57,039 nt of DNA, taken from positions 1-57,039 of the forward strand of contig DATFVB010000156.1 of the NCBI GenBank assembly GCA_035260525.1, written 5' to 3'. The notes below the pieces were generated by a model. The model searched no databases and was not told where the DNA came from. It saw nothing but the letters and a program-made list of their open reading frames with translations. The translations under genes and the position numbers were made by a program. Positions 815 through 48,143 of this stretch are shown one piece after another; position 1 is the stretch's first letter; every line of letters starts with the position of its first letter. Source of the DNA: Thermoanaerobaculia bacterium (GTDB lineage Bacteria > Acidobacteriota > Thermoanaerobaculia > UBA5066 > DATFVB01).

Positions 815-932
815 GATTTCATCCAGAGCGGCGGAGGGAATGGGCCCCGTGAAGCCGCGGCAACCGGGTTCCGTGTCGCGCGGAAAGCGTCAGGTGCCAA
901 ATCCCACCCCCGAGAGGGGAGAGATGAGATGA
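815..932 (+). promoter_or_regulatory. SAM-I (S-box) riboswitch aptamer
   Basis: The sequence 'TTCATCCAGAGCGGCGGAGGGAATGGGCCCCGTGAAGCCGCGGCAACC...GGTGCCAAATCCCACC...GAGAGATGAG' matches the remembered S-box core (AUC.AGAG.GGC.GAGGGA.UGGCCC..UGAAGCC..GCAACC...GGUGC.AAAUCC...AGAGAUGAG). The P1 arms TTCATC/GATGAG pair. It sits upstream of methionine genes, as expected. Confidence 0.8.
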
Positions 933-7626: not shown

Positions 7627-7750
7627 CGGCGTGATGCATCGAGCCGGGCGGGCGCGTGCGCCACGACCCGCGGCCTTAACGTACGCCCCGGTACGCCGCG
7701 GCCGCGGGCTCGGGCGCCCGCATCCCGCCGGGCTCGCGCCTCGCGCCGCT
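7627..7750 (-). repeat. Dispersed ~120-nt intergenic repeat, copy A (inverted relative to copy B)
   Basis: The reverse complement aligns along its length with 10577-10697 and 48016-48136. Shared blocks are GCGGCGAGGCGCGA, GGGATGCGG, GCGTACC....GCGTACGTTAAGGCCGCGGG and GGCTCGATGCATC. Confidence 0.85.
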
Positions 7751-10508: not shown

Positions 10509-10576
10509 GCTCAACAATACACGACATCCTGGGATCTCGAGGGCTGCCGAGAAGTGCAGCGAGGACTCTTGCCGAG

Positions 10577-10697
10577 GCGCGGCGAGGCGCGAACCCGACG
10601 GGATGCGGGGAGCCCGGCCCGCGGCCGCGGCGTACCGTGGCGTACGTTAAGGCCGCGGGCGGGCTCCACGCGCCCGTCCGGCTCGATGCATCGCCGT
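10577..10697 (+). repeat. Dispersed ~120-nt intergenic repeat, copy B (reference orientation)
   Basis: See copy A. It lies in the convergent gap between the 3' ends of tyrS and the ABC-ATPase/DtxR fusion. Confidence 0.85.
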
Positions 10698-10705
10698 GCC
10701 CATCC

Positions 10706-11788
10706 TCAGATGCAGCAGGCACCGCGCGGAATCTCCGCGCCGTGCGGACACGCCCTCGGGTGCTTCAGAAACGCGCAGATCGAATCGGTGACCTCCAGCG
10801 ACAGGATGTGCTCGAAGCGGCAAGCCTCCCGCTCGGTGACCTTCGCGTCGAGCGAGAGAGTCTGAGTGAAGAGCATCTCCGCCAGCCGCTGGCGCCGGAT
10901 GAGGTTCCGGGCGCGCTCGTAGCCCGTTTCGGTCAGCTCGACGGAATCGTCCGCGAAGGCGATGAGCCCCCGGTCGGCGATTCGCTTCAAGAGCGTCGGC
11001 GGCGCGCCGTGCGGGCCGGAGACGAGGCGGTGCATGCTGCGGTCGCCGCGCTCCCGCAGGATCCAGATCCGCTCGAGCGCCTCGTCCATCGCTTCCTCCG
11101 CCTCGGCGGGCGTCATGAACGAGCCGACGATTCGCCCGTGCTCGAGCGTGAGCCGCCGGTCGGCGAGCTTGGAGACGGTGAGGTCGTGCGTCACCATGAC
11201 GATCGTCTGCCCCTCGCGGTGGAGCTCCTGGAAGAGCTCGAGCACGACGTTCTCGTTCTCCTCGTCGAGGTTGCCCGTGGGCTCGTCGGCGAGGAGGAGC
11301 TTCGGCCGGTTGATGAGGGCGCGCGCGATGCAGACGCGCTGGAGCTCGCCTCCCGAGAGCTGCGAGGGGAGCGCGTCGGACCTCGCGGCGAGCCCGACCC
11401 TCCCGAGCACTTCGCGCGCCTCTTTCTCGTCGACGAGCGAATGGAGATCCTGCGCGAGCATGACGTTCTCGACAGCCGTCAGATAGGGCACGGTGTAGAA
11501 CGCCTGGAAGACGAGCCCGATCTTCTCGCGGCGGAGGCGAATTCGCTCCCTCTCGGAGACGGCGGTCGTGTCGACGCCGTCGACGACGATACGCCCCCGG
11601 TCCGGGCGGTCGAGCCCGGCGGCCAGATGCAGGAGAGTCGATTTTCCGGATCCCGAAGGTCCGACGACCGCCACGAATTCGCCCGCGGCGATCGAGACGC
11701 TGACGTCGTCGAGCGCGAGCGGTCCGCGCGGATACGCGCGGGTGACGTTTTCGAAGACGAGGATGTCGTTCATTCGTTCATCGCTCAT
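10706..11788 (-). CDS. ABC transporter ATP-binding protein fused to a C-terminal DtxR/MntR-like metalloregulator module
   Basis: 360 aa. The N-terminal ~225 aa is a LolD/MacB-type NBD ('[11 protein letters not shown]', 'LSGGELQRV', '[12 protein letters not shown]'). The C-terminal ~130 aa looks like a complete DtxR-type wHTH plus dimerisation/metal domain ('[23 protein letters not shown]', '[10 protein letters not shown]', '[12 protein letters not shown]'). Confidence 0.85.
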
Positions 11789-11792
11789 TCGT

Positions 11793-12884
11793 CTATTCGT
11801 TCCTCAAGGCGGTGATCGCCTCGATCCGGAGCGCTCGCCCGACGGAGGGAAGCCCGGCCGCCGCGGCGGTCACGATCGAGAGCAGGAAGGGGACGGCCAC
11901 CCAGAACGCCGACACCGTCAGCGGAACGCCGAAGAGCGAACGTTCGAGCCGATCGGCGATCAGAAGGCCCGCCACCGACCCTGCGGCGCCGCCGATCGCC
12001 CCCAGCGCCGCGCCTTCGGCGAGGAAGCGCACGAAGAGTCGCCGCCCCTCCGCGCCGAGCGATTTCTCGAGCGCGATCTCGCGGCGGCGCTGGACGACGG
12101 CGGCCATCAGCGTCGTCGCCGTGCCGAGCGCCGCCAGCGCCGCGATCGCGATCCCCATCGCGGTGAGGAGTCCCCTCAGGCGCACGACGATCCGCCCTTC
12201 GGAGGTCGAGACCGCGAGCAGCGGGTCGACTCTCGCGCCGGAGGCGCGCTCGATTCCCGCGGCCGATCCGGTGATGCGGCGGCCGCTTCCCGCGATGCGA
12301 AGGAGCACGGCGTCCGCTTCCCCGGGATCCGTCCGCGGCAGATCCGCCCAGGGGAGGATGAGCTCTTCGTCTTCCCCCTCGCCGGTCGCCACCCGGCCGA
12401 CGATCCGGATCTTCCGCGCGCCCCCGGGAAGGCCGACCGTCACTTCGCGCGACCGGTCGAGGCCGAGCCGGTCGAACAGACGCACGCCGGCGACGGCTTC
12501 GCCGGGAGACGCCGGAAGCGCGCCGTCGAGGTCCCAGGTGGCGAAGAACGGTTTCGCCCGGGAGAAGTCGACGGCGACCGCGGTGACGCGGCGCGACCCG
12601 GCGGCGACATCCTGGATCCGGATCGGCAGCGCGCGCTCGACTTCCGGCGCCGCGAGGATCCGGCGCGTCGCGTCGCCGGGAAGGGGGCGGCCGTCGCGGC
12701 TTCGGGCGACCGCGTTCGGCCCGCGGAGCCGGAACTCCCGGGTCATCTTGCGGGAGACGTCGGAGGCGAGCGAGCCGAGGCCGCCGATCGCGGCGGCGGC
12801 GATCGCGATCGCGACGATCGCCGGGACGTAGCGCGGAAGCCGGCGCTGGAACGATCGCAGGAGCTGACGTCCGGCGAAGCTCAC
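11793..12884 (-). CDS. FtsX-family ABC transporter permease (iron-uptake operon)
   Basis: 363 aa with a GTG start. It has an N-terminal TM helix, a periplasmic domain and a C-terminal FtsX-like 3-TM bundle ('REIALEKSLGAEGRRL'). Confidence 0.8.
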   Translation of the reverse strand: MSFAGRQLLRSFQRRLPRYVPAIVAIAIAAAAIGGLGSLASDVSRKMTREFRLRGPNAVARSRDGRPLPGDATRRILAAPEVERALPIRIQDVAAGSRRVTAVAVDFSRAKPFFATWDLDGALPASPGEAVAGVRLFDRLGLDRSREVTVGLPGGARKIRIVGRVATGEGEDEELILPWADLPRTDPGEADAVLLRIAGSGRRITGSAAGIERASGARVDPLLAVSTSEGRIVVRLRGLLTAMGIAIAALAALGTATTLMAAVVQRRREIALEKSLGAEGRRLFVRFLAEGAALGAIGGAAGSVAGLLIADRLERSLFGVPLTVSAFWVAVPFLLSIVTAAAAGLPSVGRALRIEAITALRNE

Positions 12885-12888
12885 CGCG

Positions 12889-14166
12889 TCACGCTTCCCG
12901 GAGCGCCGCGATCGGCTCGAGGGCGATCGCGCGCCGGACCGGCTCCAGCGAGGCGGCGACCGAGACGAAGACCGCCGCCGCCACGGCGACGGCGGCCAGC
13001 AGCGGCGTCCGAACGACGGAGAAGCCGAAGATCGCGCGCGCCAGCGCCGGCGCGGCGAGGAACCCGGCGGCCGCTCCCGCCGCGCCGCCGAGAAGCCCGT
13101 TCACGGCGGCTTCGGCGAGGAACACCGCGGCGACCTTCTCCGGCTCGGCGCCGAGGGCCTTCCAGAGGCCGATCTCGGGTGCTCGCTCGGTGACGGAGTC
13201 GAAGAGCGTCGAGAACACCGCGAGCAGCGCGGCGAGCAGGGCGGCCCCCGCCGCGAAGAGGAGCAGGGTCTCGGCGACGTGGGCGGAACGCTCCTCGTCG
13301 GCGGTCACCCGGCGCAGCGGCGCGGCGCGCGCGCCGGGGATCGCCTCTCCGATCTGCGCGGCGATCGACGAAGCGTAGGGGGTGCAGTACCAGCGATCAT
13401 ACTCGGCCGGCGGGAGCTTCCTCGGGTCGCGATGGAGGGCGGCCTGGAGCTTCGACTCGGGGGTCGTCATCGCGGTGACGTCGATGCGGCCGATGCGTCC
13501 CGGCGCGCCGGCGATCGCCTGCGCGGCCGAAAGCGGCAGGAGGAGGGCCGTGTCCTCCCGCTCGCCGGAACGGAAGATCCCCGTGATCGTCACGGTCCGC
13601 GTCCCTCCCGGGCCGGCGACCGCGAGCCGGGTTCCCGGGGCCCACGGGCGCCCGTCGGCCGCGCGGACGCCCGCCGCCGCCTCCTCGGCGCCGTCGGAGG
13701 GCCAGCGCCCCCGCTCGATCTTCCAAGCGGGATGCGCCCCGAGGACGCTCGTCTCGAGGGGCTCTCCCTTCTCCGTGCGGCGCTCTCTCCGGAAATCGAC
13801 CCCCTCCGCCGCGACCGGGCTCCCGTTGGCCGTCGCGGAGAATTCGAGAACGGGCGAGATCGCCGTGATGTTGTTCTTCCAGAAGAGATCGGGGAAGGCG
13901 TCGAGCGCCCGTTCGGGCAGCGCCTGCGGCGACGGGGGCGCGGGAAGCGGAGCGCCGAGGATCGACGGCGACGCCTTCGCCGTCTCGGGAAGGACGACGA
14001 TGTTCGCGCCGTACGCGGTCAGGTCGCGGCGCGCGCGGTCGCCGATGCCCGACCCGATCGCGAGGACGAGCGTCCAGACCGCGGACGCGATCGCGAGCGC
14101 GATGAAGGCCACCGTCTTGCGCCGGCGGCTCCGGCGGAACGAACTGGCGAGGATCCGAAAGAACAT
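12889..14166 (-). CDS. FtsX-family ABC transporter permease (iron-uptake operon)
   Basis: 425 aa with the same architecture ('PEIGLWKALGAEPEKV'). It is a paralog of the downstream permease. Confidence 0.8.
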   Translation of the reverse strand: MFFRILASSFRRSRRRKTVAFIALAIASAVWTLVLAIGSGIGDRARRDLTAYGANIVVLPETAKASPSILGAPLPAPPSPQALPERALDAFPDLFWKNNITAISPVLEFSATANGSPVAAEGVDFRRERRTEKGEPLETSVLGAHPAWKIERGRWPSDGAEEAAAGVRAADGRPWAPGTRLAVAGPGGTRTVTITGIFRSGEREDTALLLPLSAAQAIAGAPGRIGRIDVTAMTTPESKLQAALHRDPRKLPPAEYDRWYCTPYASSIAAQIGEAIPGARAAPLRRVTADEERSAHVAETLLLFAAGAALLAALLAVFSTLFDSVTERAPEIGLWKALGAEPEKVAAVFLAEAAVNGLLGGAAGAAAGFLAAPALARAIFGFSVVRTPLLAAVAVAAAVFVSVAASLEPVRRAIALEPIAALREA

Positions 14167-14173
14167 CCGTTCC

Positions 14174-15421
14174 TCAGCGCCCGCCCGGGGCGGCCGGAAA
14201 CTGCGCCGCTTCGGCGGCGAGGTCCGACGCGCGGATCACGACCGAATTCCCCTCGACGCGGGAGGGGAGCGGGATCGGGTTGCAGCCGCCCGGCCGTCCG
14301 ATCGTCGGGATGTTGATGTTGGCGTCGCAGTTGAGGCAGACGACATTGCCGCCGATCTCGTTGTACCCGTCCGTCCCGCAGACCTGGCAGGCGTCGAACG
14401 CGGTCTTGACCTCCTTCCCGGCCCGGATCACGAGGAAGCGCGCCGCGTGGCCCGCGACGTCGGTGCTGAACCGATGGAGGTGCCCGTCGGAGACCGTCGC
14501 GACCGGGATGCGCAGCTCGCCGCCCGCGACGGGCACGACGATCGCCGGCGTGAGCCGGCGGCCCGTTTCGGCGCGAACGAAGCTCACTCCGAGAACGACG
14601 AGGATCAAGGCGGAGAGGGCCGCGGCGACCCGGAGACCCCGCTTTTCGCGGAGGTCGCGGGCGCGGACCAGCCGCGCTTCCGGCCCCTCTCCGGCGGGCG
14701 TCGCCCCTTTCCGGGCGGTCGCGATCGCGAAGAAGGGGACGAGGAGCACGGCGAGCACGAAGATCACGTTGTTCTTCACGACCGGGCCGATCACCGCCAT
14801 CTCGGTCCGGCCCACCGGGATCAGGCCCGCCTCGGCGAGCTCATGCAGGCCGCCCACGAAGAGCTGGACGAGGAGGAGCCCGAGCACGAAGCTCGTGATC
14901 GCGAAGAATCGTTTGAGATCGATCCGGAGGCTGCCGCGCGCGAACGCGACGCCGAAGGCGACCGCGACCGCGAGGCCGAGCGTGCCGCCGGCCACTGCGG
15001 CGAGCGTGGCGCTGTTCAACGACGCCGCAGAGAGGAAGAGCACCGCCTCGATCCCCTCGCGCGCGACGAGCAGGAACGTCAGCCAGAAGACCGCCGCGCC
15101 GCCGCGGCCGAGCGCGGACGCGACGCGCGTGCCCACCTGCTCCCGCATGCGGTGGGAGGTCCGGTGAATCCACACCATCATCGTCGCGACGAACCCCGCC
15201 GCGACGAGCATCAGGAAGCCCTCGAAGACGTCCTCGTCGAGCGCGAAGCCGCGCAGCAAGATCCCGCCGGCGATCGACGCCGCGACCGCGAGCGCGATCC
15301 CGAGCGCGACCCGGCCGTAGAGGTCTTCCCGCCCCGCCTTCCGCAGCGCGCCGACGACGATCGCGACCACGAGCGCGGCCTCGATCCCTTCCCGCAGGAC
15401 GATGACGAAACTCTCGAGCAT
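14174..15421 (-). CDS. FTR1/EfeU-type high-affinity iron permease fused to a DUF2318-like Cys-rich domain
   Basis: The ATG at 15421 (MLESF...) has AGGAG upstream. There are two REGxE motifs ('LREGIEAAL', 'AREGIEAVL'). The C-terminal part, 'CQVCGTDGYNEIGGNVVCLNCDANINIPTIGRPGGCNPIPLP', resembles DUF2318. Confidence 0.82.
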   Translation of the reverse strand: MLESFVIVLREGIEAALVVAIVVGALRKAGREDLYGRVALGIALAVAASIAGGILLRGFALDEDVFEGFLMLVAAGFVATMMVWIHRTSHRMREQVGTRVASALGRGGAAVFWLTFLLVAREGIEAVLFLSAASLNSATLAAVAGGTLGLAVAVAFGVAFARGSLRIDLKRFFAITSFVLGLLLVQLFVGGLHELAEAGLIPVGRTEMAVIGPVVKNNVIFVLAVLLVPFFAIATARKGATPAGEGPEARLVRARDLREKRGLRVAAALSALILVVLGVSFVRAETGRRLTPAIVVPVAGGELRIPVATVSDGHLHRFSTDVAGHAARFLVIRAGKEVKTAFDACQVCGTDGYNEIGGNVVCLNCDANINIPTIGRPGGCNPIPLPSRVEGNSVVIRASDLAAEAAQFPAAPGGR

Positions 15422-15472
15422 GGCCGGCGATCTCCTCTTGACAACGGGCCGCGTCCGGGACAGTATCACGGC

Positions 15473-15484
15473 TGAGACTGAGTC
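15473..15484. promoter_or_regulatory. Candidate Fur-type operator in the divergent FTR1/fur promoter region
   Basis: TGAGACTGAGTC contains the palindrome GACT-N-AGTC and is repeated exactly at 16021-16032. It lies just downstream of a candidate fur promoter (TTGACA at 15438-15443, 17 nt, CAGTAT). Confidence 0.4.
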
Positions 15485-15523
15485 GCAATGTCAACCACGC
15501 GCGTTCCCCGCGCCGCCTGACCG

Positions 15524-16036
15524 ATGCCGAACCGACGCGAAGCCGTCCTCTTCGAGGCGTACCTGAAGCGGCACGGCCTGAAATTCACGCCGGAGCGGCG
15601 CGTCCTCTTCGACGAGATCTTCAAGCGCCACGAGCATTTCGAGGCGGACGAGCTCCTCTTCCGGATGAAGCAGCGGGGGAGGAAGATCTCCCGGGCGACG
15701 ATCTATCGCGGGCTCGAGCTCCTGATCGCCGCGGGCGTCGTCGGCCGGGTGCGCGTGGGCGACGAGGGGTTCCTCTACGAACGCCTCCACGCGGGGGAGC
15801 ATCACGACCACATGATCTGTCTCGGGTGCGGCAAGATCATCGAGTTCTTCGAGCCGAAGATCGAGGAGCTCCAGGATCGCGTATGCGCCCGCGCGGGGTT
15901 TCGCGCGGTCACCCACAGCCACCACATCCGGGGATTCTGCCGGGACTGCCGGAAGAGCACGGCGGTCGATCCGGAAATCGAAAGCGCGCGGCCGCCCCGC
16001 GACGGGGCGCGCCTCCTGATTGAGACTGAGTCTTAG
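15524..16036 (+). CDS. fur: Fur-family transcriptional regulator
   Basis: 170 aa. Motifs are 'TPERRVLFDEI', 'ISRATIYRGLELL', 'HHDHMICLGCGKIIEF' and 'GFCRDC'. Confidence 0.9.
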   Translation: MPNRREAVLFEAYLKRHGLKFTPERRVLFDEIFKRHEHFEADELLFRMKQRGRKISRATIYRGLELLIAAGVVGRVRVGDEGFLYERLHAGEHHDHMICLGCGKIIEFFEPKIEELQDRVCARAGFRAVTHSHHIRGFCRDCRKSTAVDPEIESARPPRDGARLLIETES

Positions 16037-16041: not shown

Positions 16042-16056
16042 ATGAAAGGAACGCCG

Positions 16057-16782
16057 ATGGCCCCGCGAGTCCGGGTTTCGGCGTGCGCCGTGGCGGTGCT
16101 GCTCCTCGGGTTCGCCGCCTCCGCCCGCGCCGACCGCAAGTTCTACCTCTTCACGTACCCGTACGCGACGCTTCCGAAGGGCGCCGCCGAGCTCGAGACC
16201 TGGATCACGCGGGAGGACGACGACGCCGTCCCGAAGCAGATCGACGGCCAGCTCCAGATCGAGGGGGAGTTCGGCCTGACGGACCGGCTCGACATCTCGC
16301 TCTACACGATCCTCGCCAGGGAAGGGGACTCCTCTCTCGACTGGGACGCCTCGAAGATCGAGGCGAAGTACCGGCTCGGAGAGCCGGGGAAGTGGCCGGT
16401 CGACGTCGAGCTCTACGCCGAGTACGAGCAGCCGTTCAAGGTGCACGGCTGGGGGGAGCCGGAATTCAAGCTCATCCTCGCTCGCGACTTCGGCGCGGTG
16501 AACGTCGCCGGGAACTTCATCTTCTTGCGCCCCGTCGACGACGAGACGGGGCGGCATCTCCCGTGGCGGAAGGAATGGGCCGCCGGCGCCTCGTACGAGC
16601 TTTCGCCGCGGGTCAATCTCGGCGTCGAGGGGCACGGCTCTTTCTCGGAGTCCAACGGGAAGATCGGCCCGGTCGTCTCCTATCAGGGGGAGAAGGCGTG
16701 GATCGCGCTCGGGCCGTACTTCGGATTGACCTCGCGGGACGGCGACGTCGGCGCGCGGGCGATCCTCGGCTTCTACTTTTGA
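16057..16782 (+). CDS. Putative outer-membrane beta-barrel protein (iron-locus associated)
   Basis: The ATG at 16057 has AAGGA 6 nt upstream; the track start at 16042 has no SD. The signal peptide is 'MAPRVRVSACAVAVLLLGFAASARA'. The sequence has alternating-hydrophobic strands and ends in 'ILGFYF', a C-terminal aromatic. Confidence 0.65.
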   Translation: MAPRVRVSACAVAVLLLGFAASARADRKFYLFTYPYATLPKGAAELETWITREDDDAVPKQIDGQLQIEGEFGLTDRLDISLYTILAREGDSSLDWDASKIEAKYRLGEPGKWPVDVELYAEYEQPFKVHGWGEPEFKLILARDFGAVNVAGNFIFLRPVDDETGRHLPWRKEWAAGASYELSPRVNLGVEGHGSFSESNGKIGPVVSYQGEKAWIALGPYFGLTSRDGDVGARAILGFYF

Positions 16783-17063
16783 GGCGGGTCGGGAGCGCGC
16801 TCGCCGTCGCCTGGGCTTTGGCCGCGGCCGCCGCGTGCGCCACGACCCTCCCGCCGGCGACTCCCGAAACTGCTCCCGGGCGCGCCCTCTACACGGCGAA
16901 ATGCCACGCGTGCCACCGGATGTACCGGCCCGACCGGGTCGGACCCGAGAAATGGCCGGCGCTCCTCGAGAAGATGGCGGAGAAGGCGAAGCTGACTCCC
17001 GAGGAAGAGAAGCAGGTTCTCGATTACGTGCTCGCCGTGTCGCCGCCGGGCCCTCCGAAGTAG
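16779..17063 (+). CDS. Small c-type-cytochrome-like lipoprotein
   Basis: The in-frame TTG at 16779 overlaps the upstream stop (TTGA). The lipobox-like signal is 'LAVAWALAAAAAC'. There is a single CxxCH ('CHACH'). Confidence 0.5.
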   Translation: MRRVGSALAVAWALAAAAACATTLPPATPETAPGRALYTAKCHACHRMYRPDRVGPEKWPALLEKMAEKAKLTPEEEKQVLDYVLAVSPPGPPK

Positions 17064-18427: not shown

Positions 18428-19729
18428 TCATTTTCTCAGAGCCGCGAGGTCCGCGAGCACGTCTTCATGTTTCCAGTCCCGGCCTTCATGGCGTCCGAGA
18501 ACCGTCCCGTCGGGGCCGATCGTGACGACGACGAGGGAGTGCGTGATCGAGCTTCCGTCACGCTCGAAGAAGGCTCCCGCGTGCTCCGCGACCGCGGCGA
18601 TCGCCTCGGGGTTCCCCGTCGCGAACGACCACCGGCCGCTTCCGACGTCCACCTGCCGGGCGTAGTCGTGGAGCACCGCGGGGGTGTCGTTCTTCGGGTC
18701 GAGCGTCACGAGGACGAAATGGGGAGCCAGGTCGGAAGCGCCGACGCGCGCGAGCCGGGCGACGGTCGCCGGACAGGCCCACGGCAGGGGACAGCGTGTG
18801 TAGATGAAGGAGAGGACGACGGGCTTTCCCCGAAAATCCGAGAGCGCGAAGGATCTTCCGTCCTGGTCGACGAGCCGGAAGTCGGGGAAAGGCCGTCCGA
18901 CGGCGGCGATCTTCGCCGGGTCGATCGCCGGCGCCTCGCCCGGGGTCTTCTTTCGGGCGATCACCGAGATCTCGTCGAGGCGTGAACGGGACCCGTCGAC
19001 GACGAGGCGCGCCGTGATCTCGTCCCCGGGCGCGAGCGCGTCGAGGCGCACGGCCGGGTCCACCGGAAAGGGCATCGTCATCGCGCCCATGTAGCCGGGG
19101 ACGGCTTCGTGCTCGACCGTGATCTCCCGCCGCTGCGCGTCGATCGCCGTGATCACGCCCCGCAGCGCGTGCGACGTGGCGGCCGGGGCGGCCGGCCGTT
19201 CGGCCGCGGGACGGCAGCCGGCGGCGGCGATGAGCAGGACGCCGAGCAACGCGCCGGCGGCCGTCCCGCGGCGGGAGCGCCGCTTTCCGATCCCGAGGAC
19301 GAAAACCGCGACCGCGACGAGCGCGCCGTCGCGGACGAGCACCCACCGCATCTCCCCGATCAGCTCGGCGTGCGTCTTCTGCGCGGCGTGGACGTCGAAG
19401 CAGCCGCACTGGACGGCCCGGTCGCGCGCGAGATTCGTCCCGATCGCGAGGATGAACACCACGAGCATCGCCGCGGCGAGCTTGCCCGCCGTCCTCCAGA
19501 AGACCCCCGAGACGAGGGCGAGGCCGCAGAGCATCTCGATCCACGGGAGGACGAGCGCCGCCGCGTGCACGAGGGAGAGGGGAAAGAGCCGGTAGTTCGC
19601 GATCATGTGCGCGAATCCCGGGGGATCCATGATCTTTGGCCCCGCCGCGACGATGAACACGGCGCCGAGGACGAGCCGCCCGATCAGGACGGCCGAACGG
19701 AGGAGCAGAGACGGCCGGGCGGCGTTCAT
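18428..19729 (-). CDS. Tri-domain fusion: MauE/DoxX-like membrane domain + CusF-like metal-binding domain + SCO1/SenC-type thioredoxin fold
   Basis: The ATG at 19729 overlaps the upstream stop (ATGA). The N-terminal 4-TM part contains 'GCFDVH'. The middle is 'GVITAIDAQRREITVEHEAVPGYMGAMTMPF'. The C-terminal part is 'VVLSFIYTRCPLPWACP...THSLVVVTIGPDG'. Confidence 0.8.
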   Translation of the reverse strand: MNAARPSLLLRSAVLIGRLVLGAVFIVAAGPKIMDPPGFAHMIANYRLFPLSLVHAAALVLPWIEMLCGLALVSGVFWRTAGKLAAAMLVVFILAIGTNLARDRAVQCGCFDVHAAQKTHAELIGEMRWVLVRDGALVAVAVFVLGIGKRRSRRGTAAGALLGVLLIAAAGCRPAAERPAAPAATSHALRGVITAIDAQRREITVEHEAVPGYMGAMTMPFPVDPAVRLDALAPGDEITARLVVDGSRSRLDEISVIARKKTPGEAPAIDPAKIAAVGRPFPDFRLVDQDGRSFALSDFRGKPVVLSFIYTRCPLPWACPATVARLARVGASDLAPHFVLVTLDPKNDTPAVLHDYARQVDVGSGRWSFATGNPEAIAAVAEHAGAFFERDGSSITHSLVVVTIGPDGTVLGRHEGRDWKHEDVLADLAALRK

Positions 19730-20418
19730 TTTTCCTCCCCGGCCGCGACGGGCCATCCGTGCTTCTGCCAGTCGGGGAATCCGTCGCGGTAGACGTAGAC
19801 GTTGTCGAACGTCACGCCCCAGAGCTTCTGCGCGAGCTGGTGCGAGTCCTCGCAGTCGCCGCCGCTGCAGTAGGCGACGATCGGAGCGTTCGTGTCGCGC
19901 CCTTCGTCGAGGAGGGCCTTGATCTTCTCGTCGGCGTCCGATTCCCAGACGGAGATCGAGCGGGCGCCGCGGACGTGTCCCTCCCGGAAGGCGGCGCTGC
20001 GGCGCGCGTCGACGAAGAGCGCGCCGCGGTCGAAGAGCGTCTTCGCCTGCTCGGGCGCGATCTCGATCCAGGGCCGGTCGGGATGGGGAGCGAAATCGGA
20101 CGCGGTCGGAGCGGGAGAGGCGGCGGGACGGGCGGGGGGGGGCGGCGCGGCCGCGCCGGACGCGGGGGCCGGCGCCTTCGGCTTCGTCGTGGCGGCCGGC
20201 GCGGGCGCCGACGGCGAAGTCGCCGGTGGCGTCGCCGGGGGGATCGGTTGCAGCGACGCGGGGGGCGCGACGGCCACGGCGACCGGCGGCCGGCCGAGCC
20301 AGGCGAGCTTGCGCTCCCGCCGGGCGAACGCGTTCGAGACGAAAGCCGCGACGACCGCGAGACCGACGATGATCGCCGCCTCGCGGAGGAACCCGCGTTC
20401 CCCCTGCCGGCGGATCAC
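19726..20418 (-). CDS. Membrane-anchored rhodanese-domain protein with a Pro/Ala-rich linker
   Basis: The GTG at 20418 overlaps the upstream stop (GTGA). It has one TM helix, then a PA-rich linker, then a rhodanese fold with the active-site loop 'VAYCSGGDCEDS'. Confidence 0.75.
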   Translation of the reverse strand: MIRRQGERGFLREAAIIVGLAVVAAFVSNAFARRERKLAWLGRPPVAVAVAPPASLQPIPPATPPATSPSAPAPAATTKPKAPAPASGAAAPPPPARPAASPAPTASDFAPHPDRPWIEIAPEQAKTLFDRGALFVDARRSAAFREGHVRGARSISVWESDADEKIKALLDEGRDTNAPIVAYCSGGDCEDSHQLAQKLWGVTFDNVYVYRDGFPDWQKHGWPVAAGEEK

Positions 20419-21374
20419 AGGCGGACCTGCAGGCCGCCGAGGACGTTGTACTTCGACGCGATGTTCACGCCGTTGATTCTCTGGTAGATCGGGATCTGGA
20501 AATAGATGTAGATCGCCGTCTTCGGCGTGAAGGCGACCCGCAGGCCGGGCGAGACGTACACGAAAGTCCCGCCGGTGTCGTCGCGGATCGCGTCGGTCCG
20601 CCCGACGTCGTCCTTCGTCCGGAACCGCGAGTTGAGCTGCAGGAGCGCCTGGAACGTCTCCGAGACCGGATAGTGGGCGCCCGCGTTGATCTGGAGCTCG
20701 TTTCCGGCCCGGTAGTCCTTCGAACCCACCCCGTTTCGCCGTCCCGTGGCGGAGACGAACCAGGGAAGGGCCGCGGTGTTCCCGAGCGGGCCGTACGTGA
20801 GCGAGGGGACGTTGACCGTTCCCTGCCAGACGAGGCTCGCGGACACGTCCGTGGATCCGGTTCCCGGGGCGATCGTCGGCTCGGCCTCGGCGCCCTCGGC
20901 GTTCCTGGCCGATCGGCCTCCCGTCGGAAGCTTGACGGCGAGAGCGGCCGAGAGATCCGCCACGAACCGGTAGCGCGCCGCGATCGAGACGTCCCCGAGA
21001 CCGTCGAGGCGGAAGCGCTCGAGCGCGCCGTCCTCGAAATGCTCGTGGTAGCGCGACACGTACGGAACCGAGAGGGAGAAGAACAGGTCGGGGGTCGCCG
21101 CGTAGTTGGAGAGGAGCGTCGTGATCCGGTTGACGGTGCGATGTTCGAGCTCCCCTTCCTCGGGGACGACCGGATGCGGGACGCGGTCGCGCCCGGAACG
21201 GAGCTCGTCCTGGTCGATGTACTGGAACGACAGGTCGAGCGTCCACTGGCCGGGAGAAGGCAGGTTCAGCGACTGCGGGTCGATCGGGCAGGTCGCCGAG
21301 CCGCAGCTCGCCACTTCGATCGCGGGGGCGGCGAGCGCAGCGGCGAACATGAGAGCGAGAACGCGAAACTTCAT
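20415..21374 (-). CDS. Putative outer-membrane beta-barrel protein
   Basis: The start is at MKF (21374) with the signal peptide 'MKFRVLALMFAAALAAPA'. It has a long alternating-strand pattern, and Cys-x4-Cys follows the signal. Confidence 0.65.
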   Translation of the reverse strand: MKFRVLALMFAAALAAPAIEVASCGSATCPIDPQSLNLPSPGQWTLDLSFQYIDQDELRSGRDRVPHPVVPEEGELEHRTVNRITTLLSNYAATPDLFFSLSVPYVSRYHEHFEDGALERFRLDGLGDVSIAARYRFVADLSAALAVKLPTGGRSARNAEGAEAEPTIAPGTGSTDVSASLVWQGTVNVPSLTYGPLGNTAALPWFVSATGRRNGVGSKDYRAGNELQINAGAHYPVSETFQALLQLNSRFRTKDDVGRTDAIRDDTGGTFVYVSPGLRVAFTPKTAIYIYFQIPIYQRINGVNIASKYNVLGGLQVRL

Positions 21375-24149: not shown

Positions 24150-24268
24150 CGGGTCGTTATATGGGACGCGGCCGCCCGGCCGGCGGCGCTCAACGTACGC
24201 CCGGGTACGCCTCGGCCGCCGGCCCGGGCGCCCGCGCCCGTCTTCCAACCCGTCTGGCCGCGCCTCGA
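24150..24268 (-). repeat. Dispersed ~120-nt repeat, copy C (inverted, diverged at one end)
   Basis: It contains the central CAACGTACGC...GGTACGCC block and the GCGCCTCG end. The ATGCATCGAGCC end is degenerate. Confidence 0.6.
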
Positions 24269-24369
24269 ACTCTCTGGTACTGAAATCGTGTATTTTGACG
24301 AGCAAGGTGACGAGCCAACTCACCCGGGCCCCGAATGCTATCTGAACGAGGGTAGGGCGAAGCGATCAG

Positions 24370-24490
24370 GTGCGGCGAGGCGCGAGCGAGACGGGATGCG
24401 GGCACGCCTGACGAGTCCCGAGGCGTACCGAGAGCGTACGTTCAGGGCGCGGCAGGCGGGCACGCGCCCGTATCGCTCGATGCATCGCCG
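24370..24490 (+). repeat. Dispersed ~120-nt repeat, copy D
   Basis: Full-length match to copies B, E and F. Together with copy C it forms an inverted pair about 100 nt apart. Confidence 0.85.
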
Positions 24491-24496
24491 CACCAG

Positions 24497-24748
24497 CTAC
24501 TCTGTCGCGATCGCGATGTCGTCGGGAAAGTGATGCCACCTTCGGAAGTTCGACGGCGAGCATTCCCGGGCTTCCTCGGCCGTCGCGTGCCGCGCGTTCC
24601 ATGCGGTGTTGACGTGGAGATAGAGGTGCATCATCGCGGCGAGCAGCTTCTCTTCGTCGAAGGTGGGCTCGCTTTCGAGCCGGCGGATCGTGCCGGCGAG
24701 CGCCGACTCCGCTTCCTTGAGGTTGAAGAGCACGTAGTCACGGTTCAT
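24497..24748 (-). CDS. Hypothetical protein (83 aa)
   Basis: 'MNRDYVLFNLKEAESALAGTIRRL...' has non-biased composition. Its ATG overlaps the stop of the DinB gene (ATGA). Confidence 0.55.
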   Translation of the reverse strand: MNRDYVLFNLKEAESALAGTIRRLESEPTFDEEKLLAAMMHLYLHVNTAWNARHATAEEARECSPSNFRRWHHFPDDIAIATE

Positions 24749-29565: not shown

Positions 29566-29680
29566 GGATACCCGGGCGCGTGCCGGCCCGCCGCGCCCTC
29601 AACGTACGCTCTCGGTACGCCTCGGGACGCGGCGTGCCTGCCCGCATCCCGTCTGGCTCGCGTCTGGCCGCGCCTCGTCG
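29566..29680 (-). repeat. Dispersed ~120-nt repeat, copy E (inverted)
   Basis: The reverse complement aligns closely with copy D (GACGGGATGCGGGCA...GAGGCGTACCGAGAGCGTACGTT.AGGGCGCGGC). Possible extra degenerate fragments lie at 29455-29560. Confidence 0.8.
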
Positions 29681-33573: not shown

Positions 33574-35448
33574 ATGTGCGGGATCGCCGGCCTCGTGGAT
33601 CTCGACGGCGTCCCGCCGGACCGCCCTCTCCTGCTGTCGATGATGCGGCGGATCGCGCATCGCGGCCCCGACGGCGGAGGCTGGATGGAAGACACGGCGG
33701 GGTCGATTCTCGAGGGCGGCCGCGAGTCGTCGGTTCCCGCCTCCGGACGGCGCTTCGCGCCCCGCCGGCCCGGCGCCTCCGCGGCGCTCGGCCATCAGCG
33801 CCTCGCGATCACCGATCTCTCGGAGGCGGGCCGGCAGCCGATGTCCCGCGGCGACGGGCGGTGGTGGATCGTCTTCAACGGCGCGATCTTCAACGCGCCC
33901 GAGCTCCGGCGGGAGCTCGAGGAGGCGGGCGAGCGCTTCACCAGCGCGACGGACACGGAGGTCCTCCTCGCCGCGTGGATCCGGTGGGGCGCCGCGGCGC
34001 TCGACCGGTTCAACGGGATGTGGGCCTTCGCGATCTGGGACGCGCGGGATCGCGAGCTCGTCTGCGCGCGCGACCGGTACGGGATCAAGCCGTTCTATTG
34101 GACGACCGCGGGGGACGTCTTCGCGTTCGGATCGGAGCCGAAGGCGCTCCGGCCCGTTCGCCCGGCGGCGCCCGACCTGAAGCTGGTGGCGGACTATCTC
34201 GCCTGGGGGTCGAGTATCCCCGGGGGCGACGCCACCGGCTACGACGGCTACCACGAGCTTCCGGCGGGCTCGATGCTCCGCACGGACGCGTCGGGCATCC
34301 GGGTGGAGACATGGTACGACCTCGACGAGCGGGTCCGCGACGCTCCGCCCGCGCCGCCGTTCGAGGAAGCCGCCGCGCGACTGCGGGAGCTCCTCGACGA
34401 CGCGATCCGGATCCGCCTCCGGGCCGACGTCCCCGTCGGACTCCTGCTTTCGGGCGGCGTCGATTCCTCCGGGATCGCCGGCATCCTCGCGGCACGTCAC
34501 CGCGGCGCGTTCTCGGGTCCGGCGATATCGCTCCGCTATCGGCGGAAGGAGATCGACGAAAGCCGCTACTCGGACGCGGTTCTCCGTGCGACGGGGATTC
34601 CGGGCGTATACGTCGAACCGACGCCCGAGAGCTTCGATCGAAACCTCGACGAATACATGGCGAGAACCGGCCACCTGACCATGGGCTCGGTCGGGTACGC
34701 CCAGTACCTTCTGTACGCGCGGGCGCGCGCCGTCGGGCTTCCGGTGATCCTGGTAGGGCAGGGATCCGACGAGCTCTTCGGCGGCTACGAGCCCTGGGAC
34801 GTGCACGTGACGCAGCTCTGGAACCGGGGACGGAAGTGGACGGCCGTCCGCGAGGGCCTCCTCTCCGGGCGGCGTCAGTGGGGATGGCCGATCGGGATCC
34901 GGCATACCGTCGGCGTCCTGCGGACGGCCCGGCGGCCCCCGCGATGCCGGTGCGACCGCGCCGGGACGCTCCAGGATCACCAGCGGCACTTGCTGCTCCT
35001 CGACTACCTGCCCGCGATCCTCGAGGGCGAGGATCGCAACTCGATGGCCTCCGCCGTCGAGTCGCGGCTGCCTTTCCTCGATCATCGGATCGTCGAATTC
35101 GCGCGAACCCTTCCCCCGGATTACCTCTGCCGCGGCGGCTGGACGAAGGCCGTGCTTCGCCGCGCGCTCGACGGACTCGTTCCGGAATACGTGCTCCGGC
35201 GGCCGCGCAAGCTCGGTCTCCCCGGCCCGCTCGCGGGGCTGGCCTGCCCGCCGGAGGCCGACGCCGCGCGCCGGCGCCTCATCGAAGGCGGGTGGTTCCC
35301 GGCATCCCTCGTCGGCGAGGCCGGCTCCGCGCTCTCCGCCGCCGGGCAGATGCGCCTTCGCCTTCTCGACGCCTGGGCCCGAAGCTGCCTCGACCGGCCC
35401 GCGGTCAGCCCGGCGCCGCCGGAGGAGTCCCGCGCCACCGTTGCGTGA
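33574..35448 (+). CDS. asnB: Asparagine synthetase B-type glutamine amidotransferase (class II GATase + PP-loop synthetase)
   Basis: 'MCGIAG' provides the Cys2 nucleophile. Also present are 'HRGPDG', 'NGAIFN', the PP-loop 'LLLSGGVDSS' and 'EDRNSMA...ESRLPFLD'. It starts 20 nt after the permease gene, and its 3' end overlaps array paralog 1 by 44 bp. Confidence 0.88.
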   Translation: MCGIAGLVDLDGVPPDRPLLLSMMRRIAHRGPDGGGWMEDTAGSILEGGRESSVPASGRRFAPRRPGASAALGHQRLAITDLSEAGRQPMSRGDGRWWIVFNGAIFNAPELRRELEEAGERFTSATDTEVLLAAWIRWGAAALDRFNGMWAFAIWDARDRELVCARDRYGIKPFYWTTAGDVFAFGSEPKALRPVRPAAPDLKLVADYLAWGSSIPGGDATGYDGYHELPAGSMLRTDASGIRVETWYDLDERVRDAPPAPPFEEAAARLRELLDDAIRIRLRADVPVGLLLSGGVDSSGIAGILAARHRGAFSGPAISLRYRRKEIDESRYSDAVLRATGIPGVYVEPTPESFDRNLDEYMARTGHLTMGSVGYAQYLLYARARAVGLPVILVGQGSDELFGGYEPWDVHVTQLWNRGRKWTAVREGLLSGRRQWGWPIGIRHTVGVLRTARRPPRCRCDRAGTLQDHQRHLLLLDYLPAILEGEDRNSMASAVESRLPFLDHRIVEFARTLPPDYLCRGGWTKAVLRRALDGLVPEYVLRRPRKLGLPGPLAGLACPPEADAARRRLIEGGWFPASLVGEAGSALSAAGQMRLRLLDAWARSCLDRPAVSPAPPEESRATVA

Positions 35449-36670
35449 CCCGCTGGAGCGTGCCGCCGAGGAGCCCGCGGTCGAGGCGGCGGAGCTTCCC
35501 CTTCCAGCCCGCGTCGCGGTGCCACCGTTCGATCCGGCGCGCCTCGGCGATCTTTGCGCGCACTGCCGCCGCGATCCGGCCGGCGCCCCCCCGTTCGAGA
35601 AGCGGGACGAGCGGAGCCCAGTAGAGCGCGAAGTTCTCCGGTGAGTATCCGAACGTCATCGACTCGATCGCCTCGGGCGTGACCCGCCGGCCGCCGAAAG
35701 CGGCGAAATCGTCGAGAACGCCGAGCGCGGCGAGGGCGGTCATCGTGCGGAGGCACTTCTCGCAGCGCCCGCAGTTCGACTCGCCGTCCGGCAGCGGTCC
35801 CTCGAAGCACACCTGGAGGTGCCGGCGCGCGACGTCCCACCCGGCGATCTCCGCGATCTTCTCCGAGCGGCCCGGGCGGAACTCCTCGTGCCGTATTTCG
35901 ACGCCGGAGCTCGAGAAGAGAGGGTCGAGCAGCGGATGGGTCCCCCAACGGTGGAGCGCGCCCGCGTCGAGCGTCGCCGCGATCGACGCCGAGCCGATCC
36001 GTTGCGCGAAGGCGTGGGCGGCCGAAGCGAGGAGCGCGCCCTGGTCCTGGGGGCCGGCCAGCACGACGCCGCCCAAAATGCGGAAGTTGCCGTCGATCTC
36101 CACGACTTCGAGGTCGTTCCGGGCGGCGATCTCCGCGACGGCCTTCGCGTGGCGGCGGGCGAGATCGCCGGCGCGGGGTGTGGGCACCTCTTCGGCAAAC
36201 GACATGCTCCGAATGGAAATCGCGTCGCGGAAGGACGCCGGGTGCCCGGCGGGGAAGGCCTGCCGGTTCTTCCGGAGCAGATGAAGGGAATCGACTCCGC
36301 CGGTCAGGAACAGGGCCGACCGTTCTCGCCGCCCGGCGAACGGACGAAAACCGTCCGACGGCTCCAGGGCCGCCGGAGGGCGGTCGCGCTTCCACCATGC
36401 GGAGAGGAGCCGCTGGACGGCTGCGATCCCGTCTCGGAGGCGCGGACAGACCGCTCCCTCGACCGCGATCCGCCGTTCTCCGGAGCGCCAGGCGGGGACG
36501 ACCGAGGCGAGCAGGAAAGGGTGCGGGTCGGCTCCGAGTACGTCGGCCCCCGTTCCGCGGGAGGTGAACGTCAGCTCGAAGGGAGGGCGGCCGGATTCTT
36601 CCCATTCGACCCGTGCGGAGAGCGCGACGCGGTCCCCGTTCCGCGCGAGGGAAACGCCGCCGATCCTCAT
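35405..36670 (-). CDS. Tandem-array paralog 1 of 10 (last transcribed): PP-loop / QueC-like four-Cys protein, function unknown
   Basis: 421 aa. Motifs are 'GERRIAVEGAVCPRL', 'FLTGGVDSL', 'WGTHPLLDP', 'VCFEGPLPDGESNCGRCEKC' and the tail 'AGWKGKLRRLDRGLLGG'. The ATG at 36668-36670 overlaps the stop of paralog 2. Confidence 0.85.
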   Translation of the reverse strand: MRIGGVSLARNGDRVALSARVEWEESGRPPFELTFTSRGTGADVLGADPHPFLLASVVPAWRSGERRIAVEGAVCPRLRDGIAAVQRLLSAWWKRDRPPAALEPSDGFRPFAGRRERSALFLTGGVDSLHLLRKNRQAFPAGHPASFRDAISIRSMSFAEEVPTPRAGDLARRHAKAVAEIAARNDLEVVEIDGNFRILGGVVLAGPQDQGALLASAAHAFAQRIGSASIAATLDAGALHRWGTHPLLDPLFSSSGVEIRHEEFRPGRSEKIAEIAGWDVARRHLQVCFEGPLPDGESNCGRCEKCLRTMTALAALGVLDDFAAFGGRRVTPEAIESMTFGYSPENFALYWAPLVPLLERGGAGRIAAAVRAKIAEARRIERWHRDAGWKGKLRRLDRGLLGGTLQRVTQRWRGTPPAAPG

Positions 36671-37905
36671 GTCGCCCTTGCCACCGCGCGGCGGATCGCG
36701 AGGAGACGTCCGCCGAGGAGCCGGCGGTCGGCGCGGCGGAGCAGGCCCTTCCATCCCGCGTCCTCGAACCACCGCGCCTGCCGTGCGGCGACGGCGAGCC
36801 GGCGCTCCACCGCACCGGCGAGGTCGTCGCGGCGGCCGCGGAGGAGCGGAAGGAGATCGCGCCAGTAGGGGGCGTAATGCGGACCGAAGTCGAAGGCCCC
36901 GACCGTCCGCGCGAGATCGAGGGCCGGGAACTCGCGCGCCTCCTCGAGACGTCCGAAAGCGGCGAGCGCGGTCATGGTGCGGAGGCACTTCTCGCAGCGG
37001 CCGCAGTTGAGGAGCGGCGGCGGGGGCCCGCTCATGCAGACGAGGAGCCGCGAAACGGCGCCTCCCGCAGCGCAGAGCTCGGCGATCCGGTCGGGCCGGG
37101 AGATTCCGATTCCCTCGTGGCGGACCGCAACGGCGGCGCTTCCGAGAGCGGCGTCGATCAGGGGATGCGTCCCGAGCGGGACGAGAATCGTCACATCGCG
37201 CCCGGAGGCGAGCGTCGCCGAGCTCCATCGGGACGGGAAGAGGTGCGCGGCGGACGCGAGCACGGACGAAAGCGAACGTTTCGCGATGAACTCGATTTCC
37301 GGCGCGAGCGCCGTGACGTTCGTCGCGACCGACACGAGCGCGAGACCCGATTCCGCGGCGGTCTCCTCCAACACGGCCCGGGTGCGGGCGTAACCGGCGA
37401 ACGGCTCCGCCGGGTCGAGCTGGTCCGGCGCGTAGAGGCCGAAGACGGCGAGCGCGTCGGTAAACGATTCGGGATGGTCGCGGGGGAAGTCGGCGCGGTT
37501 GCGACGCAGCAGGTGCGTCGAGTCGACACCCCCCGTCAGGAAGACCGCCGCCCGCGGCGGGCGGCGGGGAAAGGCGGCGCAAAACCCTTCGCGCGCCTCG
37601 ATCCGGGGCGGCTCCGAAGACGTCCCGCGCCACCCGTCGAAGACGCGCGCGATCGTGAGGAGTCCTTCGGCGAGCCGCGGGCAGACCGGTCCCTCGAGCG
37701 CGACTCGGCGCTCCCCGCTCGAGGCCGCCGGAAGGAATGCCGCCGCGAGGACCGCGTCGGACGAGGCGGCGAGATCGGCCGCAGCGGCGCCTTCGACTTC
37801 CCACCAGACGTCGAGGGGCGGACGCCCGCTTTCCTCCCAGAGGACGCGGGCGGCGACGCGGGCGCCCGCGCGGGTCGGCTCCCGACGAAGGTCGACGATC
37901 CTCAT
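36667..37905 (-). CDS. Tandem-array paralog 2 of 10
   Basis: 412 aa. Motifs are 'GERRVALEGPVCPRL', 'FLTGGVDST', 'LGTHPLIDA', 'VCMSGPPPPLLNCGRCEKC' and 'AGWKGLLRRADRRLLGG'. There are ATGA overlaps at both ends. Confidence 0.85.
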   Translation of the reverse strand: MRIVDLRREPTRAGARVAARVLWEESGRPPLDVWWEVEGAAAADLAASSDAVLAAAFLPAASSGERRVALEGPVCPRLAEGLLTIARVFDGWRGTSSEPPRIEAREGFCAAFPRRPPRAAVFLTGGVDSTHLLRRNRADFPRDHPESFTDALAVFGLYAPDQLDPAEPFAGYARTRAVLEETAAESGLALVSVATNVTALAPEIEFIAKRSLSSVLASAAHLFPSRWSSATLASGRDVTILVPLGTHPLIDAALGSAAVAVRHEGIGISRPDRIAELCAAGGAVSRLLVCMSGPPPPLLNCGRCEKCLRTMTALAAFGRLEEAREFPALDLARTVGAFDFGPHYAPYWRDLLPLLRGRRDDLAGAVERRLAVAARQARWFEDAGWKGLLRRADRRLLGGRLLAIRRAVARAT

Positions 37906-47884: not shown

Positions 47885-47920
47885 GAGTTACGGGAGTTTT
47901 CGGCTCTCCCGAGGGCGGGC

Positions 47921-47950
47921 AGCTTAACGGAGCCCGGCCGAAAGTGTCAA
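47921..47950 (-). promoter_or_regulatory. Candidate sigma70 promoter of the ten-paralog operon
   Basis: On the minus strand there is a perfect TTGACA (47950-47945), an 18-nt spacer and TAAGCT (47926-47921). A 6-bp hairpin CGGGAG-N9-CTCCCG (47911-47891) lies in the short leader. Confidence 0.4.
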
Positions 47951-48015
47951 ACACGGTCCTCACAGACGGCCGCGGGTGATCCATCTCCGTCGATGGCGTT
48001 GGAGAGGCGTCAGAA

Positions 48016-48136
48016 GCGCGGCGAGGCGCGAGCCCGGTGGGATGCGGTCGTCCCGCCCGAGGCCGCAGCGTACCGAAAGCGTACTTTAAGGCCGCGGGCG
48101 GGGCGAATGCGGTCGTCCGGCTCGATGCATCGCCGC
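48016..48136 (+). repeat. Dispersed ~120-nt repeat, copy F
   Basis: Full-length match to copy B. It sits between the 3' end of the upstream ABC operon and the promoter of the paralog array. Confidence 0.85.
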
Positions 48137-48143
48137 GCCTGCT

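Follow-up and report, generated by a model that had tools for sequence, protein, structure and literature searches.

A FetD-type ABC ATPase joined to a DtxR-like module in an iron-uptake operon of Acidobacteriota, and its possible role in metal feedback

Within a 57,039-nucleotide contig of a Thermoanaerobaculia bacterium (Acidobacteriota; assembly GCA_035260525.1, contig DATFVB010000156.1, positions 1 to 57,039 of the forward strand, below called the window), we found a gene that joins an ATP-binding cassette (ABC) ATPase of the FetD type to a C-terminal module related to the metalloregulators DtxR and IdeR. The gene belongs to an iron-uptake operon. Judged by comparison of many related sequences, the fusion is genuine and under selection. 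We propose that iron inside the cell probably throttles the uptake machine directly via the fused module.

A FetD-type ATPase with a DtxR-like C-terminus

The open reading frame (ORF) lies at 10706..11788 on the minus strand and encodes 360 aa, from an ATG start to the stop codon at 10706-10708; our check of the ORFs in the window showed a single unbroken frame. Residues 1-226 (11111..11788, minus) constitute a nucleotide-binding domain (NBD) of the type VII ABC class (MacB/LolD/FtsE/YbbA-like), as recognised by Pfam, NCBIfam and Foldseek. ABC_tran (PF00005) covers residues 26-171 with E=1.7e-34, FtsE and LolD are the top NCBIfam matches, and the fold is nearest to those of the MacB NBD, MJ0796, YbbA, FtsE and also LolD (Foldseek TMt 0.84-0.90), with MetN also among the matches. 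Membership of type VII is indicated by the fold of the NBD together with the partner FtsX/MacB_PCD permeases, encoded by two genes upstream. All catalytic motifs are present, i.e. Walker A GPSGSGKST (43-51), the Q-loop residue Q95, the signature LSGGE (144-148), Walker B LLLADEPT (164-171, with the catalytic Glu) and H201 of the H-switch, and they are invariant throughout an alignment of 109 family sequences. The first-pass annotation, which was made from the letters alone and described a standard NBD with Walker A, signature and Walker B, was thus right in this respect.

The rest of the protein divides into two subdomains. Residues 286-360 (10709..10933, minus) form a predicted metal-binding and dimerisation domain, recognised by its conservation and by Fe_dep_repr_C (PF02742), which residues 286-355 match along its whole length (profile 1-70/70; E=8e-23, or E=2e-23 when the isolated C-terminus is used as a query). 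Residues 227-285 (10934..11110, minus) form a degenerate winged-helix subdomain, delimited by the secondary structure of an AlphaFold2 (AF2) model and by residue mapping to DtxR. Here, the second profile that had been proposed as a check, PF01325 for the DtxR helix-turn-helix (HTH), gave no match to the isolated module even at E<=10, and this half is supported at the level of fold only. When the C-terminal 135 residues were compared with the Protein Data Bank (PDB) using phmmer, residues ~244-354 aligned with residues 18-133 of DtxR and also with IdeR at E of about 3e-12.

With the family alignment as input, the full-length AF2 model was confident (pLDDT 89.2) and that of residues 226-360 very confident (pLDDT 95.5, pTM 0.88). 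The latter superposed on two-domain IdeR/DtxR in Foldseek with TM scores of 0.82-0.86 and a root-mean-square deviation of 1.8-1.9 A over 126-131 of 135 columns, and its elements follow the order of DtxR: long alpha1, short alpha2, short alpha3, two-strand wing, long alpha4, alpha5 and alpha6. No solved chain spans both halves of the full-length model (Foldseek TMq <= 0.58). An SH3/FeoA-like domain 3 is absent from the module, which, since the fold matches that of two-domain IdeR/DtxR, corresponds to DtxR domains 1 and 2. The earlier claim of a complete DtxR regulator therefore holds for the two-domain fold and for PF02742, but not for domain 3, and the HTH half is not recognised by PF01325.

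We surveyed the spread of this architecture, as the first-pass annotation had suggested. In a search of 5.8 billion proteins, 119 of the 120 best clusters contained both PF00005 and PF02742 in proteins of 344-415 aa with 53-100% identity; they came from Acidobacteriota, Polarisedimenticolia and similar taxa and were named only "ATP-binding cassette domain-containing protein" or "putative ABC transport system ATP-binding protein". Genomes were also scanned with a sequence pattern and a module alignment, one genome per species, and 80 of at least 588 loci were kept. An ATPase immediately upstream in the same open frame was present in 50 of these 80, and all 50 fused loci had the order FTR1/FtrD-like, FtsX, FtsX, ATPase-module. 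The fused loci belonged mostly to Acidobacteriota including Terriglobia, and also to metagenome-assembled genomes (MAGs) labelled Planctomycetota, Dormibacterota, Methylomirabilota and Udaeobacter.

The junction between the two parts is of nearly fixed length. The distance from HG, the last conserved motif of the NBD, to the alpha1 aromatic residue was exactly 25 residues, gap-free, in 143 of 161 fused sequences, and in the AF2 model a strand (219-223) is followed by the helix 227-246. Both the alignment and the model thus point to rigid coupling of NBD and module. A linker sub-clade (L078, L079, L090 and 15 other loci; protein P0177) carries a junction insert of 21-25 residues with the pattern ..CPLxxTxDCC.. 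and, in addition, an insertion of ~30 residues within the winged-helix region.

A frameshift, which the first-pass annotation had named as the danger to its claim, or an assembly error that joined an ATPase gene to a separate gene of the DtxR family is hardly credible. Small separate module proteins do exist in databases (P0123, P0131, P0132), but they stem from frameshift-ridden or mis-called contigs: tblastn of locus L055 gave one continuous fused frame, and in L054 the genes are all fragmented. Moreover, a single ORF was observed in 119 of 120 best clusters and in 50 independent genomes, with a conserved, gap-free junction. The PF02742-only proteins P0131 and P0132 were, for the same reason of frameshifted or mis-called contigs, rejected as split "Rosetta-stone" evidence. 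Other apparent fusions of the module were discarded as well, namely P0244 (FeoB "Gate" domain and module, with out-of-frame junk between the parts) and P0193 (transketolase) and P0197 (phage sheath), which look like merged gene calls. No description of an ABC ATPase-DtxR fusion was found in the literature searched, in agreement with the first-pass annotation, and a 2023 review of transporter regulation contains no mention of DtxR.

All four genes of the operon lie on the minus strand, in the order FTR1-DUF2318, two FtsX permeases and the ATPase-DtxR gene. The first (14174..15469) encodes, in one protein, an FTR1 permease and a Cys-rich domain of the FtrD-like/DUF2318 type, i.e. the equivalents of FetM and FetA; according to an alignment of N-termini across loci, its true start is likely Met17 at 15421. 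It is followed by a FetB-like (12889..14166) and a FetC-like (11793..12884) FtsX/MacB_PCD permease, all three being assigned by Pfam. Among annotated relatives of the NBD, the best (59% identity) is an ATPase of 231 aa without a fused module, encoded on an E. coli plasmid in one cluster with an FTR1 protein, an iron transporter (P19), an Fe-S protein, two permeases and TlpA-type reductases; this cluster is the FetMP-FetABCDEF/Fls system. Betaproteobacterial orthologues are 53-55% identical, unfused and followed by thioredoxin and cytochrome c genes. From this identity and the gene neighbourhood shared with the E. coli plasmid cluster, we infer that the ATPase is a FetD orthologue of the FetMP-FetABCDEF (FTR1/P19) system.

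[quoted passage not shown] By homology, the role of the ABC part is that of a type VII mechanotransducer supporting the FTR1 permease, and not that of the iron channel itself. The first-pass annotation had linked the gene to an iron importer, and its place in an iron-uptake operon is borne out by FTR1-DUF2318, the two FtsX genes and FetD orthology. As for its phrase "motor of an iron importer", the protein is the ATPase of an iron-uptake machine, but the phrase applies only loosely because the ABC part is a MacB/FtsEX-like mechanotransducer standing beside FTR1.

The genes that flank the operon in the window include neither P19 (FetP) nor thioredoxins (FetE/F); they are fur, an outer-membrane-protein-like gene, a small cytochrome c gene and tyrS. 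The outer-membrane-like protein (16042-16782, plus; no Pfam hit) and a small CxxCH cytochrome (16779-17063, plus) are encoded downstream of fur and may be lineage-specific partners of the iron system. Further on, a 442-aa protein (18428-19756, minus) combines a MauE/DoxX membrane part, a CusF-like copper-binding part and an SCO1/SenC thioredoxin-like part, and is followed by a rhodanese-domain protein (19726-21246). Together, these two genes may make up a module for copper handling or redox chemistry in the vicinity of the iron operon.

Metal sites and DNA-binding surface of the module

Metal sites were mapped on an alignment of 118 fused modules, 95 free-standing relatives and DtxR. The string EACRFEH, quoted by the first-pass annotation, is present at 321-327 (two further quoted strings, of ten and twelve residues, lie at 298-307 and 343-354), and its suggested equivalence to C102/E105/H106 was confirmed by phmmer against the PDB, which places C323, E326 and H327 on those positions of DtxR. 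These primary-site residues are invariant (118/118 fused). The position of DtxR M10 is taken by E236, with Glu in 115 of 118 fused modules, which resembles the Mn-type members of the DtxR family; together with E239, this residue provides putative ligands on alpha1 (227-246). At the ancillary site, the H79 position corresponds to residue 300 (His in 79/118, Gln in 36/118, Q300 in the protein from the window), that of E83 to the invariant E304, and that of H98 to E319. The putative metal site would thus tie alpha1, the helix running straight out of the ATPase, to alpha4/alpha5.

Six additional residues are invariant in the fused family (C338, H343, C347, H349, C358 and C359). C347 and H349 sit in a CPHG motif, and we suppose that this motif and the C-terminal CC motif may substitute for the ligands of the absent SH3 domain. 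The module also aligned to 3HRS and 5CVI in the phmmer comparison with the PDB. The CPHG residues C347/H349 presumably correspond to the ligands C123/H125 of ScaR/SloR. We further take all six positions of the MntR binuclear site to be ligand-capable here, since E239 occupies the position of MntR E11. Altogether, the conservation pattern suggests that the metal-sensing half is under strong constraint.

The relatives of the module were obtained by an exhaustive phmmer search (2664 representatives at E<=1e-3) and the genome pattern scan, which replaced a word-indexed module-only search that had scored 58 candidates and yielded mostly fragments. The nearest are free-standing ~220-aa proteins consisting of the module and FeoA (45-50% identity, e.g. 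P0126, P0137, P0140), whose annotations say no more than metal-dependent or DtxR-family regulator. They carry the same invariant Cys/His set, and the closest of them are also PF01325-negative, while the more distant P0135/P0136 are PF01325-positive. Nine of 30 free-standing genes directly follow feoB, sometimes with fur in front; others, in Nitrospirota, lie among housekeeping genes, so that linkage of the whole sub-family to feoB proved only partly true. Examples downstream of feoB are L009 7989-8648, L011 7917-8657, L068, L076 and L100, among others; in L011, L076 and L100 fur precedes feoB, and the putative recognition helix of these proteins is acidic. They may be metal-sensing variants of FeoA rather than repressors. 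Because the module is either fused to the ATPase or, with FeoA, placed beside feoB, one sensor type seems to be associated with two ferrous-iron uptake systems.

The abundance of invariant ligands could also be explained if the module were a structural clamp only, that is, a constitutively loaded (e.g. with Zn or Fe) dimeriser of ATPase subunits under the heterodimeric FtsX pair that senses nothing. The six extra Cys/His residues indeed suggest a tight, possibly structural metal, the rigid junction would suit a clamp, and the C-terminal domains of MalK and MetN are also dimer contacts. We nevertheless regard this as rather unlikely: it is the residues of the regulatory (primary) DtxR site that are invariant, not just the structural ones, and unfused FetD orthologues function without any clamp. 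Furthermore, the module also occurs free-standing with a FeoA domain, in some cases beside feoB, and is therefore better understood as a regulatory part than as a scaffold.

The DNA-binding half presents a different picture from the metal-sensing one. In the AF2 model, alpha2 comprises five residues (252-256) and alpha3 nine (264-272), with a 7-residue Pro/Gly loop between them, and the wing is at residues 276-285. DtxR contacts DNA with R27, R29, T40, S42, R47, R50 and R60 (PMC7762939). Of these residues, only R47 has a conserved equivalent in our alignment (R269); R27 is deleted, and the positions of R29, R50 and R60 are not conserved as basic. The tip of the wing is DD in the protein from the window and proline-rich in the family, hence acidic or proline-rich overall. 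In addition, DtxR residues 3-6 abut DNA and would clash with it unless unwound (PMC7762939), and their counterparts here, residues 229-232, are joined to a 225-residue domain by the fixed junction. The net charge of alpha3 proved ambiguous as an arbiter of DNA binding (+2.0 in the fused family, a mean of -1.7 in free-standing relatives and 0 in DtxR). Overall, the alignment indicates that the DNA-binding surface of the module is degenerate, and DNA binding by the module is disfavoured.

Divergently from the operon, the window encodes a Fur-family regulator (15524..16036, plus; PF01475, E=7e-29). A Fur gene likewise borders the operon in L001 and L003, and in L056, L057 and L065 it opens the operon. 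The operon promoter contains a 7-1-7 palindrome resembling a Fur-family operator (TGAGACTnAGTCGCA, 15472..15488), invariant in the window, L001 and L003, and a second copy (TGAGACTGAGTCTTA, 16020..16036) lies just upstream of the outer-membrane-like gene. Both palindromes are conserved in L001 and L003 and, according to a shuffle control, are not expected by chance. A site with <=3 mismatches from the classical Fur 7-1-7 box was present upstream of FTR1 in 21 of 44 fused loci, many of which are related to each other, against 0.15 expected from shuffles and 0 in coding controls. The DtxR-type 19-bp box was not enriched upstream of the 44 fused operons, although the specificity of the module itself may differ. 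In a Planctomycetales MAG with a fused operon and no adjacent Fur, a Fur-like AT-rich inverted repeat (TGAGAAT...TCAGAATCAATCTCA) was observed upstream of FTR1 (L002 770-800). Judging by these sites, transcriptional control seems to be supplied separately from the module, by Fur.

These observations bear on the possibility that the protein is a membrane-tethered one-component repressor, in which the metal-loaded module binds operators while remaining on the transporter, perhaps in addition to an effect on the ATPase. In its favour, the winged helix and the dimerisation domain are confidently predicted and can be laid over the structure of IdeR bound to DNA, alpha3 carries a net positive charge and the conserved R269/R271/R273, the promoter palindromes are conserved, and most loci of the Terriglobia type have no adjacent regulator gene. 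We still hold it to be unlikely. PF01325 does not match, four of five DtxR DNA-contact arginines are not conserved (contact list from PMC7762939), the wing tip is acidic or proline-rich, and the HTH has short helices separated by the Pro/Gly loop. The N-terminus of alpha1, which lies at the DNA in DtxR, is here tied to the NBD through a short junction of fixed length. Finally, the palindromes fit the Fur 7-1-7 pattern and not the DtxR box, and a fur gene is present.

A possible metal-operated brake on the ATPase

Concerning the function of the module, we suggest that cytoplasmic Fe2+ binds it and allosterically restrains the ATPase, a form of trans-inhibition that the first-pass annotation had also considered and to which our analysis gives roughly even chances. 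In this model, two ATPase subunits would lie beneath the FtsX-type heterodimer, and their C-terminal modules would pair via the DtxR dimerisation domain. Rising cytoplasmic Fe2+ (or Mn2+) would be bound between alpha1 (E236/E239) and alpha4/alpha5, where H/Q300, E304, C323, E326 and H327 are candidate ligands. In DtxR, metal binding drives a caliper-like movement of domains. A movement of the same type would be relayed through the rigid, fixed-length junction to both NBDs, so that their ATP-driven closure would be restrained and the mechanotransducer needed by FTR1 uptake would be shut down. This would constitute a fast post-translational layer above Fur repression and quicker than it. Trans-inhibition by C-terminal regulatory domains of ABC ATPases has been described for MetNI and ModBC (PMC10710835), and here, too, a regulatory-type domain lies C-terminal to the NBD, across a junction of fixed length.

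Several points weigh against this model. The substrate and role of C. jejuni FetBCD are unknown (PMC10783030), and for this reason we infer what "inhibition" would bring about. The winged-helix fold is kept at high confidence, with a positive alpha3 (+2.0) and conserved R269/R271/R273, so a role in contacting DNA or membrane is possible, and the module itself could in principle bind the AT-rich palindromes. Adjacency of Fur is limited to some clades, and most Terriglobia-type loci are without an adjacent regulator gene. Also, ~11% of fused members (18/161) have the longer Cys-rich linker, which fits rigid coupling less well.

Alternatively, the module could be an iron chaperone and no regulator, accepting Fe2+ that leaves FTR1 and handing it on. 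Its sites rich in thiolates and imidazoles lie close to the membrane complex, and the function of FetBCD is unknown, as would suit such a hand-off domain. On the other hand, no chaperone of the DtxR family is known, unfused systems need none, and rigid coupling to the ATPase would be left unexplained; we consider this reading very doubtful.

If cytoplasmic Fe2+ does act through the module, the consequences may be more general. It is conceivable, though less likely than not, that a branch of the DtxR family quit its role in transcription and became a portable, protein-attached Fe2+ brake, on FetD-type ATPases and, in a sister form with FeoA, docking to FeoB, thus serving as a general post-translational module of iron feedback in Acidobacteriota, Nitrospirota, Planctomycetota and other phyla. 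If so, it would be the first metal trans-inhibition on a type VII ABC mechanotransducer. Iron uptake needs a quick shut-off against Fenton damage. To our knowledge, the control of bacterial iron importers is almost wholly transcriptional (Fur, DtxR). Among ABC systems, direct feedback by the product has been documented solely in cases of the methionine and molybdate type (PMC10710835). An Fe2+-operated brake would mean that a transcription-factor fold was reused as an allosteric domain and would add a post-translational layer to iron homeostasis in abundant soil phyla. It would also offer a handle on the function of FetBCD-type ABC systems in FTR1/P19 systems, relevant to pathogens such as Campylobacter, because the sensed ligand is likely tied to what the ATPase drives. 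With its fixed junction and small size, the module might be an attractive natural design for metal-switchable ATPases.

Other features of the window and comparison with known systems

A dispersed intergenic repeat of ~130 nt (10575..10704, plus) abuts the stop codon of the fused ORF. The first-pass annotation had noted a repeat element at this place and advised a check of the C-terminus; the repeat is real, but it ends just before the stop codon and outside the gene, and the C-terminus ...IPRGxCC is not element-derived, as it is invariant across the family. Full copies are located at 10575-10704, 24368-24498 and 48014-48143, and partial reverse copies at 7689-7749, 24203-24263 and 29613-29673. 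The repeat is GC-rich, with a core of ~75 nt (GCGGCGAGGCGCG...GGGATGCGGG...GGCGTACCGnnGCGTACGTT), and three copies possess a ~55-nt extension ending with GCTCGATGCATCGCCG. It looks similar to repetitive extragenic palindromes or miniature inverted-repeat transposable elements. An Rfam scan gave no match for the repeat and none at the fusion locus.

Elsewhere in the window, the Rfam model RF00162 detected an S-adenosylmethionine riboswitch at 816-930 (plus; 76.9 bits, E=2e-16). The region 35400-48200 (minus) contains about ten tandem paralogous genes of ~1247 nt / ~416 aa each with 60-80% nucleotide identity. Their products share a PP-loop-like SGG[IV]DS motif and a C-terminal NCGxCEKC, with no Pfam hit at E<=1e-3, and putatively represent an unusual tandem expansion of an uncharacterised ATP-pyrophosphatase-like family.

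The fusion is apparently unstudied, while both its parts come from well-known families and there are precedents for the logic that we propose. Compared with FetD (Cj1663 / CJJ81176_1654 of C. jejuni; the FetMP-Fls systems of E. coli/Salmonella plasmids), the fused protein has an orthologous NBD, 59% identical to its E. coli plasmid counterpart, and is likewise accompanied by an FTR1 permease, a DUF2318/Fe-S protein and two FtsX-type permeases. Known FetD proteins of ~230 aa, however, lack the C-terminal module, and the locus described here lacks P19 and thioredoxins and has FTR1 fused to DUF2318. With DtxR/IdeR (PDB 1C0W, 2IT0, 7B1Y), the module shares the two-domain fold, the full-length PF02742 match and the residues equivalent to C102/E105/H106 and E83. 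Unlike them, it has no free N-terminus, no PF01325 match and no SH3-like domain 3, its alpha2/alpha3 are shortened, Glu replaces both M10 and H98, four of five DNA-contact arginines have been lost, and the invariant C338/H343/C347/H349/C358/C359 are additional. With MntR/ScaR/SloR, it has in common an acidic residue at the M10 position, the second acidic residue E239 at the position of MntR E11 and the CPHG residues C347 and H349, which presumably match C123/H125 of ScaR/SloR; it differs by Cys at the C102 position (Fe-type), by the ATPase fusion and by an HTH invisible to the profile.

The free-standing module+FeoA proteins resemble the fused module in their Cys/His set, in their PF01325-negative N-terminal half and in overall sequence (45-50% identity), but in place of the N-terminal ATPase they have a FeoA/SH3 domain at the C-terminus, their alpha3 is on average acidic (-1.7), and many are encoded in unrelated neighbourhoods. 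Finally, MetNI (C2/ACT-like), ModBC (TOBE) and MalK also have a ligand-binding, dimerising domain C-terminal to the NBD (ligand binding being predicted in our case), and the proposed logic, in which the cytoplasmic product restrains closure of the NBDs, would be the same (PMC10710835). In contrast to these systems, the regulatory fold is here derived from a transcription factor, the ATPase belongs to a type VII mechanotransducer instead of a type I importer, and the ion that would be sensed is carried by a separate permease, FTR1.

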